A model generated the notes under the pieces. The model was not told the origin of the DNA. It saw only the letters and a list, made by a program, of their open reading frames with translations, and searched no databases. This document shows, piece after piece, positions 8,110 through 17,509 of a stretch of 64,000 bases of DNA; within the stretch, counting starts at the first letter, position 1; each line of letters opens with the position of its first letter. Source of the stretch: Vermamoeba vermiformis (taxonomy: Eukaryota); contig JBEWZL010000064.1 in the NCBI GenBank assembly GCA_045837725.1, forward strand, positions 372,001 to 436,000, in the 5' to 3' direction. A program made the position numbers and the translations under genes.

Positions 8110-10447
8110 TTAGGACTGCACATTCTCATTTGAGACAAGTCTGAACTTGGCGAACATGAACGGATATCTGTCTTGGTACCAGTTCCTATTAAAGATGCAA
8201 TAGGTTAGAACTAACGATATACCATAATAAGGCAATCTATATTGCGTACCTGAAGCTTGGTCGGATCAGTTTGAGATCTGTCGCGAAGCTAGCGCCCTTG
8301 ATAACGTAGTGCTTGCCTTCAAAGAAGTCCGAAGAGTATCCAGGATAGTGCTGCAAAAATAACTCGTGTCAGATTCAAGAATTGATGTGATTCTATTCGT
8401 TCATTCGAAATCTCTCTTATTGAAATTGTGCTGCCACAATGCACTTACCGGCATCGCCTCGAAGCCCTCTAAAGGTCCAAAAGGTGTGCTGGTCCATTCC
8501 CACGCATCGCCGATCAAGTCATGCACGCCCCACGCACTAGCGCCCTTGGGATGAGTGCCGACTGGAGTTGGGGACCAGCTGTTCCAATCAACATTGCAGT
8601 GCTCGGGTGTGAGTGCTTCATTGCCCCAAGGATATTTCCTGCAGCGCCTTATTATTATCCAGCTCATACATTAAGTGTAAGCTCGTGCGTACCTCTCGGA
8701 ATTGTCATTCGGGCTCGTGTAAGCAGCTCGCTGGTACTGCGCTTCGGTCATCAAAGATCTGCCTTTCCATTTAGCATAGGCTGTAATTAGAATAGGAATT
8801 AATCCATAGATGTGACTAACGAGTGCTAATGTGAATTACCAGTAGCTTCAGCCCAGCTCACAAACACGGGCCAATTAACAACTTGCGCAATTGGAATCTC
8901 TTCAGAGAACAATAGTTTAACCTAGATATTAAGCGGATTAGAGCAAAGTCTAAGAATAAACCGTGGTATTAGAACTTACAGCGTAAGATCCGTCTTCGTG
9001 TTGTCGCCAGAACACGGGATGTTTCATGTTTTCCTTTTCTTTCCAGATCCAGTCCTCAGGTCTCCAGTTCTGTGGGTTGTCATATGCTCCACTCGTAACG
9101 AACTCCAAGAACTCGCCATTGGTTACGTTCAACGAGTCAATAGTGAAGGCTGGAACATCAACCTGAATTAATTAAGTTAGACACCTTTGGATCTAACATT
9201 CCACGAATGGACCGAAAAGTTATTGTACTATTACTAGGATTGCATCTTTTTTTGCTAATTTTAGGTCAGATTTTTCTTTCGAACGGTTCGCGTTCTAGAA
9301 TCGTTGAGAATATGACTTACTTGTGATTTAGAAAATTCGTTATCCCAACCCCACTCAATTTCATCAAAGTTTACGCCAAGAGTGACCTTGCCGGCAGGGA
9401 TGTGGATTTGGTTCTTTTGTACTTGCGAAGGACCAGTGATCGGGGCTGGAATCCAGTTGGGCTTGTGCTTATATTTGCCATCGAGCTGTTGGTACATGTA
9501 CAGCAGCGTCTCTTGATGCATCATCTCGTGCTCCAGGCCTAAGTGATAAACACGGACTTTTTTCCATAAAAGGAAAAATTAGCGTTCCGTTTAGATTATA
9601 ATTTTATTACCAACGATCATATTATTATTATTTATATTCTTAAATTTGTTGCTCGACTTACGATTTGAGGTCCACTTATTTTCCGTCGTGTTTTTTGCCT
9701 GATCAAAGGCTTCTAAAATCTTCTCGTGGCATTGTTGCGCATAGTCCTTAACTTGCTCGTATGAAGGCCAGCCTGAGTTCTCTTTAGGACACTCCGAATG
9801 CGAATGGATTTTCGTTGGATCCATAACATCCGGATCAATTCCGCGCTCGAACATGTTGTCATACTAAAATCGGACTAATTAATAAGATCGCTATCAAGTG
9901 CATAATATCGTTCTATAGAAATCGTATTAATTGAAAAAAAACGGGGATTAATGTGCGGATGCATCCAGACCCAGATAACTTCGAGAAATTGATATTCAGT
10001 ACGCGCACATAGACGCAGCGTATTTCGTAAGGATGATTTGGGCACTCCATTTGAAAATAGCAATTATTTAACGGAGATCTCAGAGCAATTTTTTGAAAGG
10101 ACGCAACGATTAGCGCAAAATAAATTTAATTAAGCTTGATTCAATTTTGTTTGACTATAAAATAGTATAATTTACTATTAACATATTAAAATTAATCCAA
10201 CAAAATTCGTAACACGATATGGATTGGATCTATTACTTACGTCCTCATTGAATGGCTCCTCTTTGCAAACCTTTCTATTGACATGAATATAGTTGAAACC
10301 GGCAATGTGGCCAACATAGAATAAGAAAGGATGTCGCAGCTCGATCGGCTTGACGAGAAGGGCATCTCGGGTAAGAAATCCGTCGAAGAATGTTTCAGAA
10401 CGAGCCCATAACTTTCTAAATTGTGCTTCTAAATGTCGTTTATCCAT
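8110..10447 (-). CDS. egtB: Ergothioneine sulfoxide synthase (DinB-like + FGE-sulfatase-like; Egt1/EgtB family), about 9 coding exons
   Basis: KPIELRHPFLFYVGH, FERGIDPDVMDPTKIHSHSE, iron-binding EHEMMHQETLLYM, WGWDNE, VTNGEFLEFV, YPWGN, GVHDLIGDAWEWT, YPGYSSDFFEGKHYVIKGASFAT, RPSFRNWYQ. Confidence 0.88.
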
Positions 10448-10771
10448 ATTTACTGTCCCGAAGCGTTAGCTTAAAACTCAAGGGATGCAGAAATAGCAAG
10501 AGCTCTTAACTAACCTTTTGTTTTGTTGCTTGAAGACTTCGATTTGGGTAATGTCAAAAGGTATTAGAATTCCGCCTGTTTAATGCCAAGTGGGCGAATT
10601 CTGGCTGATTTTTTGGTTGGGGAAATAGATCGCACGACTTTTCATGTGCTTTTTAACCTTAATTTGGTGAAAAGTCCGTCTCGGCGATTTTGGCAGACTC
10701 CTCCGTCCGAACCTTCCCTCATCATTCTTCCAGAAGTAATCTAGATTACGACCACACCTCTTCAAGTAACA
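10448..10771. promoter_or_regulatory. Candidate bidirectional promoter between egtB and egtD start codons
   Basis: Only 324 nt separate the divergent ATGs; the interval includes a probable minus-strand 5'-UTR intron of egtB (CTAAC...CAG just upstream of ATG 10447). Confidence 0.5.
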
Positions 10772-12397
10772 ATGGCTACAGACGTAATCCGCGCCGCGAT
10801 CCCTTTGCCTAAGTAAGGATCCTTTCCGCCGCTTCAAACTACTATTAGCAAATTTATAAACACCAACAACAATCGCATCATATATTTACCGCGATTATAG
10901 ATTGTCGTTCTGGTTGTCCTTGTTCTTTATAGTTCACCAAATCCGGACTTTCAGAGCGCATGACTAATTTATCATTAATTTAGGGTTTCGCAACACAAAG
11001 TCGACGAAAGATTTAATCTTATTCAATACCAAACCAATCTCGAGTCTTTCTCTTCGAACGTAAAGGATGGATTGGGCGCTAAAAACAAACAACTTAGTCC
11101 TGCTTTCCTCTACGACGAGCGCGGTTCAAATCTCTTCGAAGATATTTGCAAGCTCGACGAATACTATTTAACCCGTTCAGAAGCCGAGATCTTGGAAAGT
11201 AAATCCCCCGCGATCGTGGAACCCTTCGACAAAGAAACTGTAGTTGTCGTAAGTATTAATTATAGCTATCATAGCATCACGATCCTCATATAATATGATA
11301 AATTGAAGGAAAGTCGCGCGTGACCCGTCGTCAGACTTTAAATTTATTACCAAATTTGTAACGCTATTTCCAGCTTTTCTTAAATAATATTCCCTGAAAT
11401 TATGCACTTGTATTATTGATTTGTTGAATTAACGTAATATAATGTTTAGGAACTCGGATCTGGCAGCTCTATTAAGACCAGACTGTTGATCGACGCTTAC
11501 ACTCGCCGTCATAACGGCATGCATTACGTGCCTATTGATATCTCCAGTACGATGCTCAAAGAGAGCTCGCAAGATATGTTAAAGAGCTTTAACAAGCTGA
11601 AAGTAACTGGTATTGCCGCTGAGTATCGCGAGGCTTTGCGCCATCTGGCTGCATCTCGCGAGTTCAGAGACAAGCGAAAATTGGTTTTATGGCTTGGCTC
11701 GAGCATTGGAAACTTTAACAGAGCACAGGCGTTGCAATTTATGACCGAAATCAGAACTTTGTTGAAGCCTGGTGATTGTTTCTTGCTCGGAGTGGATTTG
11801 AAAAAAGACGAAAAGTAAGTGCCTTTACTCCTCGTTATTATCGACATTTTTAGTCATATTTAATCATATTTGAATATTACTACGATAGTTGTAAGCCAAT
11901 TTGACAGCAAAACTAACGCGCATTTCTCAATCTAGCATTCTTGTTCCTGCTTACCACGACTCGAAGGGAGTGACCGAAGATTTCATTAAGAACGTGCTTC
12001 GTCGAATTAACAACGAGTTGGGAGGCGAATTCGATTTGAACCAGTTCACTTACAGCGCCATCTACAACCAGATCGAGGGCGCTATTGAAATGAGATTGGT
12101 TAGCAACGTAGAACAAACTGTAAATATTTCTTCGTTGAATATGGACGTTCAATTTAAGGAAGGAGAAGCCATTTTTGTTGAAAGCAGCTACAAGTAAGCA
12201 AAAATGAATTTCAGATGTAATTTTGATTAAATTACTAACGGTCAAAAAATAGGTATAACCAAGATGATATTGAGACATTGGTTAAAAATTCTGGTTTTAC
12301 CTTAACTCAGCAATGGTTTGATTCAAATAACCGATTCAGCTTGAATCTGCTGACTGTCCCCGACCAAAAGTCCACGAATCCGCTCCAATATTTGTAA
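10772..12397 (+). CDS. egtD: L-histidine N-alpha-trimethyltransferase (EgtD, Methyltransf_33), 5 exons
   Basis: Exon 1 ATG 10772 (MATDVIRAAIPLP, GTAAGG donor) joins in frame to the exon at 10984; motifs FLYDERGSNLFEDICKLDEYYLTRSE, ELGSGS, YVPIDIS, WLGSSIGNF, LLGVDLKKD, AYHDSKGVT, VESSYKY. Confidence 0.92.
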
Positions 12398-12581
12398 AAT
12401 AGCAACGACATTATGCGTAATGAATAAATAATGATTAATTTTAATCTCTGCTGCCGTGTTCGTTAAAAAGGTCCATGACAACTGAATGCCAAAAAACTTT
12501 ATTAGACTGACTGGCTTGGGTCCCTTTACTATATATTATTATACAATTGCATCTTATTCATGTATTTTGAGGTCTGTTTCT

Positions 12582-15093
12582 TTAGTATTTGAGACTATAA
12601 GCTTCAGCTAAGATTTGTACTGGATGTTTTGTTTTAATCTTGTCGCGCGGCAATGAAGGCTCAATGTTCGTCATGCCTTGCTTAATATGATCGACTGCTA
12701 ACGGGCAATCCGAAGCCACGATATGCTCTTGCGACTCGTTCTCTACAAAACGGAAAGAATTTCAGTTTTAATGGAATCGCGCAAGACGAAATTCATCTTG
12801 AGTAGTTAGTTACCTCTCTCTTTAAAATTTCTGACTGCATTTCTAAATACTGGCTTTCCTACTTTCATGGCAACTTCATGGCCCTCCTACAACATTTTCA
12901 GCACCCGGATGCGTTTTTACTTGGAAAATTGGCCTACCTTATCAACACCAAAAGATCCGCCGTGGCCTGAGCATCGTTCGACAGATGAGATTTTCAAGTC
13001 AGGTATCATTTGTAACAGCTCTTGCGACTTAAATCCAACAGCTTGCGCTCGAGAATGGCAACTATGATGCAGCGTAACGGATCCCGTGTGATTCTTAATT
13101 GGCAACAGACCATGCTCTTTAGACAGCTTAACGACATATTCTGAAGCATCGTACGTATTTTTGGCAACTTTTTGAACCAACTAACAAAATATTAGTAATG
13201 GATTTGAGATCCTGATGTGATGGCGTACCGAGTTGTCGGGCATTAACAGAGGCCATTCTTTCTTCAACATTAATGCACATGAGGCTACTGGAGCAACAAT
13301 ATCGTATCCTTCATCGATGTATTTGCTCAATACTGCAGTCACTTTGACCGCTTGTTGCATGGTCTCTTTCACTTTGCCTTGCTCGAACTGCGGCATGCCA
13401 CAACAGCCCGGGTACTTCGCTTTAACTTCGACTCCATTGTGCAATAACACTGCTCGTAGTGCTATCACAAATCATTATTAGTCGAGGGATGAAAAGTCTC
13501 CGTATTGACACGTGTCAAAGTGCAAGTTCACGTGTCAAAATCTGGCTTGTACGTACCGTGACCAATCTCAGGCTTATTATAATTAACTAGACATGTCGTG
13601 TACATCAATACTTTGCGCTTTTGATACGCTTTGCCTTCAGTATTCACGGGCACAGGGGTTGTTTTGACCTTGTTCATGAATGTTTCTCCCTTCGGCACGT
13701 AATTGGGTAATTCCGCCTTAGGATGGACTCCTTGTATTGCAATAATTAATATTAATAAGAGTCTATTATATACTTATATATGTTGCATACCTGCAATGTA
13801 ATGTAATGCTCGTCTAAAAATGGACGGATGTTCTTCGTTTGTTTTCAACATCCAGTTAACTAATTTGGAAAATCTTGAAGCCAATGGACCAACAAGATCA
13901 ACATTAGTATATAGTGCATGCGTGATACCTAGCAAAAAATATTTGTAAGGATTTCTACATTAACCAACAAAAAAATTGTTTCTATTTCCTAATTAGGTAA
14001 TACTTACTTTCGGCCTGGACTTCTAATTTTCTCGAGACATCTTTTTCCACGTGCGTTGAACTCTTATCAACGGTCTGACTAATTCTACTGCCTGAAATTT
14101 CATCAACGCTGTACTTCTCGGGCTTCTTCAATGTCACGCCAGCCACATTGCTATTCATATTCTCGACTGCTCGGTAGCGCAGCATTAAGTGCGGAAAATC
14201 TATGTTCAGCGTGTGCGGCGGTACGTAAGGACATTTGCTCATGAAACACAAGTCACACATGGTGCACTTGTCGACGACTTGCTATATAATAACATTACGT
14301 TAGTAATATTCATACATTTTATCTTGCAACGTTAAAATGAAGCGAAATCATGCGTGATTTGACGGATGCAGATTCTGGATCGAGCGAAAAATTACCTTAA
14401 ATGAAGAGCTAGGCACACTATCAAGTTCTCCAGTCTTACTATTATCGACTAAATCAAATAGGGTTGGAAAAGAGTCGCACAATGAATAGCATAAGCGACA
14501 TCCATGACACACGTCGAAGACACGACGCATTTCCTGTTTAGAAAAGTCATTTAGCATATAGTTCCATAATTATAGTTATTTTACATATTTTGAACGCCAA
14601 ACTTACGAGTTCTAATTTTTCCTGATTGTAAAAATCCGGATCAGACCACGGCAGAGGATACCGGAATGTTCCCTTGTGCGCTTCACCTATAATTAATATT
14701 AGCTAATTATTTTGTAACGCAAATCGCTTCTGACTTACCGTATTTGTTCGCCGCTTCGGATGCGAGATTTGGATCGGTTTGTTGCTTCGTTACTTTACTG
14801 TTGCATGGTGAAAATTGGATAGAAGATGTATTATATGATTTTTTAATAACATTTTGGGCCTTGTGAGATACGGCGGGTTGAGTGACGCGAGATCGCGAGA
14901 TTCTTAATATTGTCTGTTGAACAATTAAATAAATAAATTAGCTACTATGTGGAGGAGGGTAAAAATGGTATTTATAATAATTTTTGGTATTATTGAGTTG
15001 AAAGAAAAATTAATACGCGGGTGCAAAAGATTTCTTTGGATTCACAAATATTCAGCCCTTAAAACATACCCTTCTTGCAATATTATTCAGCAT
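12582..15093 (-). CDS. Bacterial-type Fe-S oxidoreductase (GlpC/HdrD-like: 2x[4Fe-4S] + CCG domains) with predicted mitochondrial presequence, multi-exon
   Basis: EMRRVFDVCHGCRLCYSLCDSFP, CTMCDLCFMSKCPYVPPH, YPGCCGMP, PVASCALMLK, HHSCHSRAQ, ERCSGHGGSFGV, VASDCPLA, HPVQILAEAY; spliced N-terminus MLNNIARR-TILRISRSRVTQ is Arg-rich with no acidic residues. Confidence 0.85.
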
Positions 15094-15155: not shown

Positions 15156-15515
15156 TCACGCCCTGAGAAAAGACGGATAGCGTAACGACATCAAGCGAGG
15201 AATATGCCTCGCAATCTGTGAAAGAGCCCTAGGATATACAATCTCATACACAAGGATACCAAACGACCAGACATCTGTAACGTAAGTTTGAGTTAGTTCG
15301 TACGTACCTGATTTGGTAGAGAGTGTTTGTTTGTTCGTCAACGATTCTGGCGCCATCAACCTGATCGGACCGAGCTCCGATTGCGTTGCTCCCTGTTGAT
15401 TTTGTTCTTCGATCAATCGTGACATGCCAAAGTCAGTTAACTTGGGCTCATTGTGCCTCAACAACACGTTTCTCGCAGCAACATCGCGATGCACCATGTT
15501 ATGTATCAGGTGCAC
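15156..15515 (-). pseudogene. Tyrosine-kinase-like catalytic-domain fragment
   Basis: HRDVAARNVLL, DFGMSR, GPIRLMAPES, DVWSFG present; no room for an N-lobe (serinc stop lies about 120 nt upstream) and the C-lobe degenerates. Confidence 0.65.
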
Positions 15516-15638
15516 GAGGAGTATAGTGAATGTGATGTTTATATACTACTGCAATAAGGTCTAAAAAAATCTGTACAGTCTAATGTGTTACCGAATAACA
15601 GGACGTCATGAGCCAATTGAATAAAATTGTCTGGATTT

Positions 15639-17509
15639 TTAACTCCAGTCTCTGTCGGGCAAGACAATAGGCGCGATGAGGGTCCAGAAGTACAACAAAA
15701 TGACGAGCCAGCTAGAGATCATCTTGACCCACACACTGAACATGCCTTGATCCACGGAGATGTGCCTATAATTGAAACAGTATTAATAACTGTACGAAAG
15801 TTCAGATGTGTTGTGCACGAGCGGATCTTCAGCGGTGGATCGAGCACTTACTTGGAGTCTTCAGCGCCGGAAATGGTCTGCCAGTTAGTCAACACGAGGC
15901 CCAAGTACATGGCAGCCATGGCGAAGGTCAAGTGGAAGAAGGTGTAGTTGTACGCGGTGGTTTCTTTCTCGTCGTCAGCGTCAACGTCCTCTTCTTCGCT
16001 GCTCTCTTCAGCCTCCTCGTGCTTCTCTTCAATGAGCTGTTTCTTCTCGTCGTCGATCTGAGACTCGTGGTACTTCTTTTGGTCCTTAATGGCCTTTTCA
16101 ATGTCCTTCTTCTCGCCCATAACCGACGAGCTGGACATGCGCAGGGCGGAGTAGACGACCGCAACGAACGTGAACACGACGCCCAAGAAGATTGAAAGGT
16201 CGGAGCCTGCGCCTTCAGTGAACTGGAATGGAGCACAGCCCATATCACGAGGCTCGCTAATAAGAGTAATATTAGAATCGTGTTCTGGATCCTCGCATCC
16301 GATCTACTTCGAGCCTCGAGTGCATTGTTGTATGTTATATATAAGAGCTATAATTACCTCATAATAGCGCTGTAGACCAAGTACATGGAGTACGCAGAGA
16401 CCATGCTCGATTGGAACAAGCCAGCACGAGGATTGTTCTCGTGGATCTTGGGGCTAACCGACATCAAGCTGCAGAAAATGACAGCGATCAAATTGACGGT
16501 GATGAATGCGGTGTTGACGGAGCAGCCCTCGCCTTTAGTGCTCAAAATATACAATGCGATAGCAATGCCCAGAGCTGCGAGGAAGAACAAGATGGATGTG
16601 CCGAGCAACAACACGGCGTAGACACGTGACTCGGTCTCTTGGTACTTGGCCATCCATCGGTCAGCCCAAGCATGAGCCATATCGACCAACAAAGTGAGCT
16701 GGATCAAGATGAAAATAGCAGCACCGAAGAGCGAAATCCAAGCTGAAATAAGGTTCTTAATTAGAAATACTACTATTGAATGTCGATCGCGTTATTTAAA
16801 ATAATTACTACAATATCAAATTAAAAATAAGGAGGCTATGATAAATAGCGGATCGAAGATTGCATGAGTTTGCAAGAGGTCATACCGAAAGGAATGAAGG
16901 TTGCGTTAGGAATAAAGAACGCAGCAACCATAATGCCGATAATAGCGAGGAACTTGATGCCCCACCATCCGTTTTGAATAAATCCGCGAGGATCTTTGTT
17001 GGATTTCGCACCAATAAGAGTCAAAGCAAGCAAGATATGGAAAACCTGTTATATAATAAATTATTAATCATATTACGGCTTAGAGTAATGCCAATAATTT
17101 CCTATACGGCGAATAAATTATTTTTTCATATTTATGAAAAAACGAAATAATTACCGCTAATGAGAAGGTAATTCTATAGACGGCCATAGCTCCATAACAT
17201 TTTTCTTCAGGGCAGGTTTGAAGGACTAACAAATTTAATTGTCAGAATAAAATTATTATTTAAATTAATATTTCAGCTGATCTTGCCTGGAATTTTGCTT
17301 AGCCATGCATTATTCTCGACCCAATATGGTAAGTTACTTAATAACCACGCGATGAATGCAAAAATAAGCAATTGCAAAGCATAAGCGAATCTGGTCGCGA
17401 TCGACTTTTTGCACGAGACAGTGCTGCCAAAACAACGGCAGAGCTGGCCTACGCAGCATGAAAATGCTTGCATAGCACAGCAACTAGCACAACTGAGACC
17501 AAGACCCAT
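15639..17509 (-). CDS. SERINC: Serine incorporator (Serinc/TDE/Tms1) membrane protein, multi-exon
   Basis: Cys-rich N-terminus, [83 protein letters not shown]. Confidence 0.93.

Follow-up and report, generated by a model that had tools for sequence, protein, structure and literature searches.

A spliced RFO gene and its rubrerythrin and DUF3501 partners in the nuclear genome of Vermamoeba vermiformis

A bacterial rubrerythrin of the aerobic type (RBR) has been shown to be a peroxidase required for growth under aerobic conditions (PMC3317640). This type was defined by Cardenas et al. (2016; PMC5114695), who also named the accompanying protein RFO (COG0247) and proposed it as a substitute for the lost rubredoxin domain. 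In eukaryotes, Gray et al. (2020; PMC7050145) reported RFO, RBR, and DUF3501 with predicted mitochondrial targeting in Andalucia godoyi, listed these proteins in amoebozoans, heteroloboseans, cryptists, glaucophytes, malawimonads, and others, showed that RFO and DUF3501 originate from Alphaproteobacteria, and inferred that the last eukaryotic common ancestor (LECA) possessed the system; according to Table S3(C) of that study, it was lost in animals, fungi, and green plants. In its Fig. 7, eukaryotes plus Alphaproteobacteria are reported to form a monophyletic group with full support for RFO. The rubrerythrin system is taken as established in PMC12699882. A first-pass annotation of the DNA described below had called the subfamily prokaryotic, a statement at odds with the eukaryotic mitochondrial RFOs published with a taxon table in 2020 (PMC7050145).

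We describe here the RFO gene of Vermamoeba vermiformis, located in a stretch of 64,000 nucleotides that was analysed as a whole and is termed the window (contig JBEWZL010000064.1, positions 372,001 to 436,000). Together with the RBR and DUF3501 genes of the same genome, it very probably represents the aerobic-type rubrerythrin system described from mitochondria by Gray et al. (2020; PMC7050145).

The RFO gene and its partner genes

The minus strand of the window from 15093 to 12582 is a real, spliced protist gene for an iron-sulfur protein of the RFO family (Table 1). Its 11 exons form a single open frame of 570 aa from an ATG to a TAA codon, and its ten introns, all with GT-AG borders, are 48-156 nt long with a GC content of 0.20-0.43 as compared to 0.33-0.47 in the exons. 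The cysteine motifs that the first-pass annotation had described as split by introns were all located, namely CHGCRLCYSLC (102-112), CTMCDLC..KCPY (145-158), CCG (354-356), CSGHGG (482-487), and SDCP (528-531), and the N-terminus it had ascribed to two 5' exons corresponds to residues 1-35, i.e., exon 1 and the start of exon 2.

For six of the ten introns (1, 2, 3, 4, 7, and 8), sequencing runs of related strains contain joints whose size matches the model; those of introns 1, 2, 7, and 8 stem from one low-depth contig set (run X1) whose RNA status is guessed, and those of introns 3 and 4 also occur in raw RNA reads of runs X13 and X15. The proteins P0162, P0163, and P0165 (570 aa each) align with the RFO model without gaps from the first methionine across all ten junctions, with 500-501 of 570 residues identical (88%), and their source contigs of 1774-1840 nt are shorter than the 2512-nt genomic span of the gene. 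Splicing of the 5' exons, on which the first-pass annotation had made its reading depend beforehand, agrees with both the joints of introns 1 and 2 and this collinearity. Read depth was about 1-4 on the RFO gene and 20-50 on the adjoining methyltransferase gene, which is no measure of expression level, the strains being about 90% alike. Bacterial contamination as the source of the gene was ruled out by the ten introns and the intron-rich eukaryotic neighbours (Serinc, methyltransferase).

Table 1 Features of the RFO gene, its surroundings in the window, and the partner genes elsewhere in the genome assembly (G000)
Feature	Position	Strand	Basis or remark
Whole RFO gene	12582..15093	minus	single copy in the genome assembly
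RFO exon 1, residues 1-8, start of presequence-like extension, 24 nt	15070..15093	minus	joint 14913/15070 in run X1; collinear with P0162/P0163/P0165
RFO exon 2, residues 9-66, remaining acid-free extension, first D/E at 55	14739..14913	minus	gene model, joints, homologue alignment
RFO exon 3, residues 67-93, bacterial-RFO-like part begins at about 74	14607..14686	minus	gene model, joints, BLAST
RFO exon 4, residues 94-139, first CxxCxxCxxxC motif (Cys102/105/108/112)	14396..14533	minus	joints; weak Fer4 matches, E 0.03
RFO exon 5, residues 140-230, second ferredoxin motif (Cys145/148/151/156) and eukaryote-type insert	14008..14281	minus	gene model, joint, alignment
Eukaryote-type insert of RFO, residues ~181-231	14008-14158	minus	after second ferredoxin motif
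RFO exon 6, residues 231-276, helical linker, moderately amphipathic	13791..13928	minus	gene model, homologue structure model, alignment
RFO exon 7, residues 277-334, Cys323 as first ligand of CCG domain 1	13557..13730	minus	gene model, joint, alignment
RFO exon 8, residues 335-412, Cys354, Cys355, Cys396 of CCG domain 1	13229..13461	minus	PF02754 above cut-off
RFO exon 9, residues 413-493, Cys453, His454, Cys482, His485 of CCG domain 2	12938..13180	minus	gene model, joint, alignment
RFO exon 10, residues 494-517	12814..12886	minus	junctions collinear with P0162/P0163/P0165
RFO exon 11, residues 518-570, Cys530, stop codon	12582..12742	minus	gene model; collinear with P0162/P0163/P0165
Head-to-head gene pair directly downstream of RFO	~8950-10470 and 10980-12400	minus and plus	
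Tyrosine-kinase-like fragment	15156-15545	minus	PF07714
Serinc gene	~15600-17500	minus	PF03348
RBR gene, 7 exons, 174 aa	G000:C12:137155-135930	minus	outside window; over PF02915 cut-off
DUF3501 gene, 8 exons, 259 aa	G000:C109:404560-403210	minus	outside window; over PF12007 cut-off
His-rich stretch in exon 2 of DUF3501 gene	L005 ~4277-4160 (G000:C109)		absent from bacterial orthologues

With two CxxCxxC ferredoxin motifs and a CCG domain (PF02754), the protein belongs to the RFO family, and the Fe-S oxidoreductase of the first-pass annotation can be assigned as the orthologue of the gene located between aerobic-type RBR and DUF3501 in bacteria. Among the loci fetched from GTDB, the RFO model matched 80 of 80 at 40-47% identity, and 56 of the 80 had full flanks; in 55 of these the gene order was RBR-RFO-DUF3501 on one strand, and in the remaining one RBR-RFO. 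Of 301 genomes sampled evenly across the phylum, 17 contained RFO, and RBR, RFO, and DUF3501 occurred together in all 17 loci.

The search for rubrerythrin and DUF3501 genes proposed in the first-pass annotation was performed with profiles and yielded one locus for each in the genome. The link of the protein to these two families is thereby upheld, and the "unknown partners" of that annotation have been found. Both gene models are predicted from the genomic sequence. The RBR model contains the di-iron motifs (E51-54/ExxH/ExxE/ExxH) and no CxxC motif, and consequently no rubredoxin domain; it shares 68-79% identity with the gene that lies upstream of RFO in bacteria. RFO thus shares its nuclear genome with a rubredoxin-less RBR and with DUF3501. 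Alignment of the DUF3501 family revealed invariant acidic residues and no conserved cysteine. The only informative match of a DUF3501 structure model in a fold search was the structure 3fjv of its own family (Z 23.3, function unknown), beyond which generic beta-sandwiches with Z values of 7.4 or less gave no functional clue. A histidine-rich stretch between the N-terminal extension and the domain of the DUF3501 model is possibly metal-binding.

The surroundings of the RFO gene contain further features. One member of the head-to-head pair is an EgtB/OvoA/SenA-like sulfoxide synthase with exon matches to TIGR04344, NF041186, TIGR03440, and PF03781, the other an EgtD-like histidine methyltransferase with PF10017 in three exons, and one intron of the pair is spliced in reads. 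The pair looks like a small intron-bearing cluster of the ergothioneine type, which would be another antioxidant function beside RFO. Upstream of RFO, a tyrosine-kinase-like fragment covering only positions 121-199 of the 258 of its profile is wedged between the RFO start codon and the end of an ordinary intron-containing Serinc gene, where an N-lobe would find no space; it is probably a gene remnant.

Origin and cellular location

Phylogenetic trees of RFO were calculated without the insert columns by quick searches with 61 rows, 11 of 72 rows being left out as near-duplicates or partial and two loci (L022, L097) having no row; the alphaproteobacterial rows had been collected with an alpha-like query, and taxon names are missing from 9 of the 11 outgroup rows. 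The 21 insert-type rows, to which the window RFO belongs, formed one clade with SH-aLRT values of 86 (LG+G4) and 89 (PMSF); only four eukaryote-type rows carry a eukaryote label, most being unnamed metagenome or transcriptome proteins. The sister clade contained all 14 named alphaproteobacterial loci, and a split with support of 100 set both clades apart from 11 proteobacterial rows at greater distance, Burkholderia among them. The BLAST and tree analysis suggested in the first-pass annotation to distinguish an alphaproteobacterial from another origin thus points to the former, and we consider the gene structure, the family, both partner genes, and the placement beside Alphaproteobacteria as shown here with near certainty. 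Among the named rows, the nearest were Stygamoeba, Gocevia, and a protein deposited with a locust assembly, a neighbourhood that suggests an amoebozoan. The latter protein (P0056, XP_049848862.1) is an RFO that carries both a presequence-like extension and the insert and lies on a 376-kb contig filed under Schistocerca gregaria. It probably belongs to a protist present in that assembly as a contaminant or parasite, because it falls inside the clade of the window RFO.

The insert of eukaryote-type RFOs comprises 45-60 residues. From the second ferredoxin motif to the CCG motif, all 16 eukaryote-type rows in which this stretch could be measured span 190-236 residues, eight further ones being too short, as compared to 146-151 residues in all 48 bacterial rows, and the same insert is readable in the Andalucia and Naegleria sequences from published supplements. 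It is identical to that of P0162 in 41 of 51 residues and mostly confidently modelled in the structure of a homologue. The literature searched, which lay outside subscription journals, contained no discussion of the insert or of the CCG ligand sets treated below; the insert as a eukaryotic marker and the unusual ligand sets may therefore be new here, as small additions. The insert offers a cheap marker for separating eukaryotic from bacterial RFOs in metagenomes.

Bacterial RFO orthologues align from about residue 74 of the model onwards. Residues 1-54 are basic, rich in arginine, lysine, serine, and threonine, and free of acidic residues, the probability of such a run being about 0.0015 at the acidic content of 11.4% of the remaining protein, and residues 6-16 form the second-strongest amphipathic window of the whole protein. 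The extension evolves faster than the rest, as indicated by its lower identity to P0162 (36/60 for residues 1-60, 112/120 for the ferredoxin part, and 233/250 for the CCG part), and AlphaFold models the corresponding stretch of a homologue as unstructured. In these features, the extension resembles a mitochondrial presequence. A transmembrane helix is not present in the protein. RFO is very likely located in the mitochondrial matrix, and the presequence and mitochondrial retargeting put forward in the first-pass annotation are probable in view of the acid-free, basic, and amphipathic N-terminus and the occurrence of the Naegleria orthologue in a mitochondrial proteome.

Two alternatives concern the route of the gene into the genome and the meaning of its extension. 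Recent or lineage-specific horizontal transfer of the gene from a bacterium, followed by the gain of introns and a presequence, might be suggested by the patchy distribution of RFO among eukaryotes (table in PMC7050145), the identity of 45-48% to bacterial proteins, and the ESM Atlas, in which 10 of the 10 CCG clusters listed are bacterial. The best ten BLAST matches of the RFO model among 159 proteins, however, are insert-bearing and of the eukaryote type, bacterial proteins following only thereafter; the insert occurs in every measurable eukaryote-type row and in none of the bacterial ones; and the three genes of the trio lie on separate contigs with 6-10 introns and an extension of their own each. 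The grouping of the window RFO with eukaryote-type RFOs beside Alphaproteobacteria agrees with the published tree and argues against a recent transfer, a reading which is largely refuted and which we regard as extremely improbable. Where the first-pass annotation had left the choice between endosymbiotic and horizontal origin, the tree and the shared insert favour endosymbiotic inheritance, and recent horizontal acquisition is unsupported. The gene belongs in effect to a vertically inherited eukaryotic family, the outcome which that annotation had named as speaking against its reading, albeit a little known and patchy family. It is likewise quite unlikely that the extension is no mitochondrial signal and that the protein resides in the cytosol or another organelle. 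A few RFOs without predicted signal are listed in Table S3(C) of PMC7050145 (Paramoeba pemaquidensis, Parvamoeba), but acid-free basic extensions are found on RFO, RBR (43 residues, first D/E at 44), and DUF3501 (48 residues, first D/E at 49) alike (p 0.0015, 0.0002, and 0.0005, respectively), and none was present in the five bacterial RFOs checked, whose first D/E is at residue 3. The rapid evolution and lack of structure of the extension also disagree with a non-mitochondrial role, as does fractionation of Naegleria gruberi (PMC8134430), in which RFO, RBR, and DUF3501 were represented by 30, 11, and 12 unique peptides in Supplementary Data 2, sheet 1, which was taken as the mitochondrial list by its size (953 rows for 946 proteins).

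Ligand sets, fold, and proposed function

The ferredoxin part of RFO contains eight invariant cysteines as predicted ligands of two cubane clusters. CCG domain 1 possesses four cysteines (323, 354, 355, 396) and CCG domain 2, which is not detected by Pfam alone, three cysteines (453, 482, 530) and two histidines. In a 72-row alignment, all 15 cluster-type cysteines were conserved in essentially every covering row, His454 in 72 and His485 in 71 rows, and positions 393, 483, and 533 were cysteine in none. HdrB contains two non-cubane cluster sites with five cysteines each. HdrB/HdrD-type heterodisulfide reductase was rejected as an identity for RFO, whose sets of four and three cysteines are incomplete in comparison.

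A search of the PDB with the RFO alignment (A1) gave no match at E 0.001, which indicates that no RFO structure has been solved; relatives were found by fold search only. For this purpose, the AlphaFold model (pLDDT 85) of the homologue P0042, which is 65% identical over the aligned columns, was used. It matched the soluble part of EtfD (9ojn) with residues 46-548 (Z 22.0, 366 residues, rmsd 3.5) and HdrB (8rvu_B) over the CCG part (Z 20.8, 245 residues). EtfD connects ETF with the quinone pool as an iron-sulfur wire (PMC13083937).

RFO has neither a membrane domain nor a flavin domain nor a full Hdr ligand set, and the simplest reading is that of an electron carrier which requires an outside donor and reduces the di-iron site of RBR. 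Once imported and freed of its extension, RFO would bind two cubane [4Fe-4S] clusters and up to two clusters in the CCG domains, be reduced at the inner membrane by a respiratory or flavoprotein donor (the quinol pool or a flavoprotein of the ETF/FNR type), and deliver the electrons to the rubredoxin-less RBR, which would reduce H2O2 and organic peroxides. DUF3501 would most likely act as an adaptor or iron-loading factor. We lean towards this role of RFO as an EtfD/HdrD-like electron wire re-reducing a di-iron peroxidase. In PMC5114695 and in a preprint (10.1101/2025.06.01.657255), electron transfer from RFO to RBR is put forward as a hypothesis only, and searches of the literature outside subscription journals did not reveal a biochemical study of RFO.

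The database labels propose a different protein, GlpC, a subunit of anaerobic glycerol-3-phosphate dehydrogenase, which appears in the JGI labels of most matches and whose models are the best NCBIfam matches. P0162 nevertheless scored below both equivalog cut-offs (178.8 bits against 278 for NF008369 and 97.8 against 279.9 for TIGR03379), an exon-wise search of the possibly incomplete assembly gave no match to GlpB (TIGR03378), and the bacterial orthologues lie between RBR and DUF3501; GlpC was rejected and its chance of being correct is minute. Of more weight is the possibility that RFO belongs to the system without feeding electrons into it, e.g., as a sensor of peroxide or iron, a repair or metal-loading factor, or a thiol/disulfide enzyme at the incomplete CCG sites, with RBR being reduced by FNR or ferredoxin. 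The RBR of Hydrogenobacter (ferriperoxin) turns over in vitro with NADPH and FNR alone (PMC3317640), and RBR occurs without RFO in Thermoproteales (PMC5114695) and without a listed RFO in many red algae, Guillardia, and Cyanophora (PMC7050145), from which it follows that RFO is dispensable for some RBRs; moreover, the three cysteines and two near-invariant histidines of CCG domain 2 could leave an open iron site. The eight invariant ferredoxin cysteines and the EtfD-like architecture fit electron transfer, and RFO accompanies that RBR lineage which is devoid of a rubredoxin electron carrier (PMC5114695). A role other than electron transfer appears possible but distinctly less probable than that of a wire.

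A more specific form of the electron wire is conceivable, in which RFO would couple the respiratory quinol pool directly to RBR, CCG domain 2 would hold a His-ligated cluster (3 Cys and 2 His), and the insert, common to amoebozoan-type and discoban RFOs, would date from LECA and dock RFO on the inner membrane or a respiratory complex; we regard this combination as speculative and rather unlikely. If true, it would constitute a peroxide sink of ancestral origin that needs neither thioredoxin nor glutathione, and new biochemistry for the RFO family, with nothing special to this locus.

Comparison with described systems

Like RFO, the soluble region of EtfD (9ojn, PMC13083937), HdrB/HdrD, and GlpC contain two 4Fe-4S motifs followed by two CCG domains, whereas their identity to RFO is 16-20% and RFO has no membrane or haem domain. 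The CCG ligands of EtfD are four cysteines and five cysteines plus histidine (PMC13083937), those of RFO four cysteines and three cysteines plus His454/His485. Bacterial and archaeal RFOs (PMC5114695) share with the window RFO 45-48% identity over residues 74-568, the 15 cluster-type cysteines, and the co-occurrence of RBR and DUF3501, but bacterial RFOs have about 445-460 aa, are encoded in an operon, and have neither the extension nor the insert.

A study of 2020 had already reported this system together with its origin, its mitochondrial targeting, and examples from amoebozoans (PMC7050145), and the discovery value of the locus is accordingly small; the genome of this aerobic protist contributes one more complete and intact RFO/RBR/DUF3501 trio, for which exact gene models are available, to what represents an ancestral mitochondrial antioxidant route. 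The Andalucia-type system (PMC7050145) is alike in the three proteins, in unlinked nuclear genes, N-terminal extensions, and alphaproteobacterial affinity, and also in the motifs and the position of the insert, and complete trios are known from several amoebozoans. Only the host and the gene structure differ, the window RFO gene having ten introns and the Andalucia genes none, and the extension of the window RFO is longer, with about 70 residues preceding the bacterial start.
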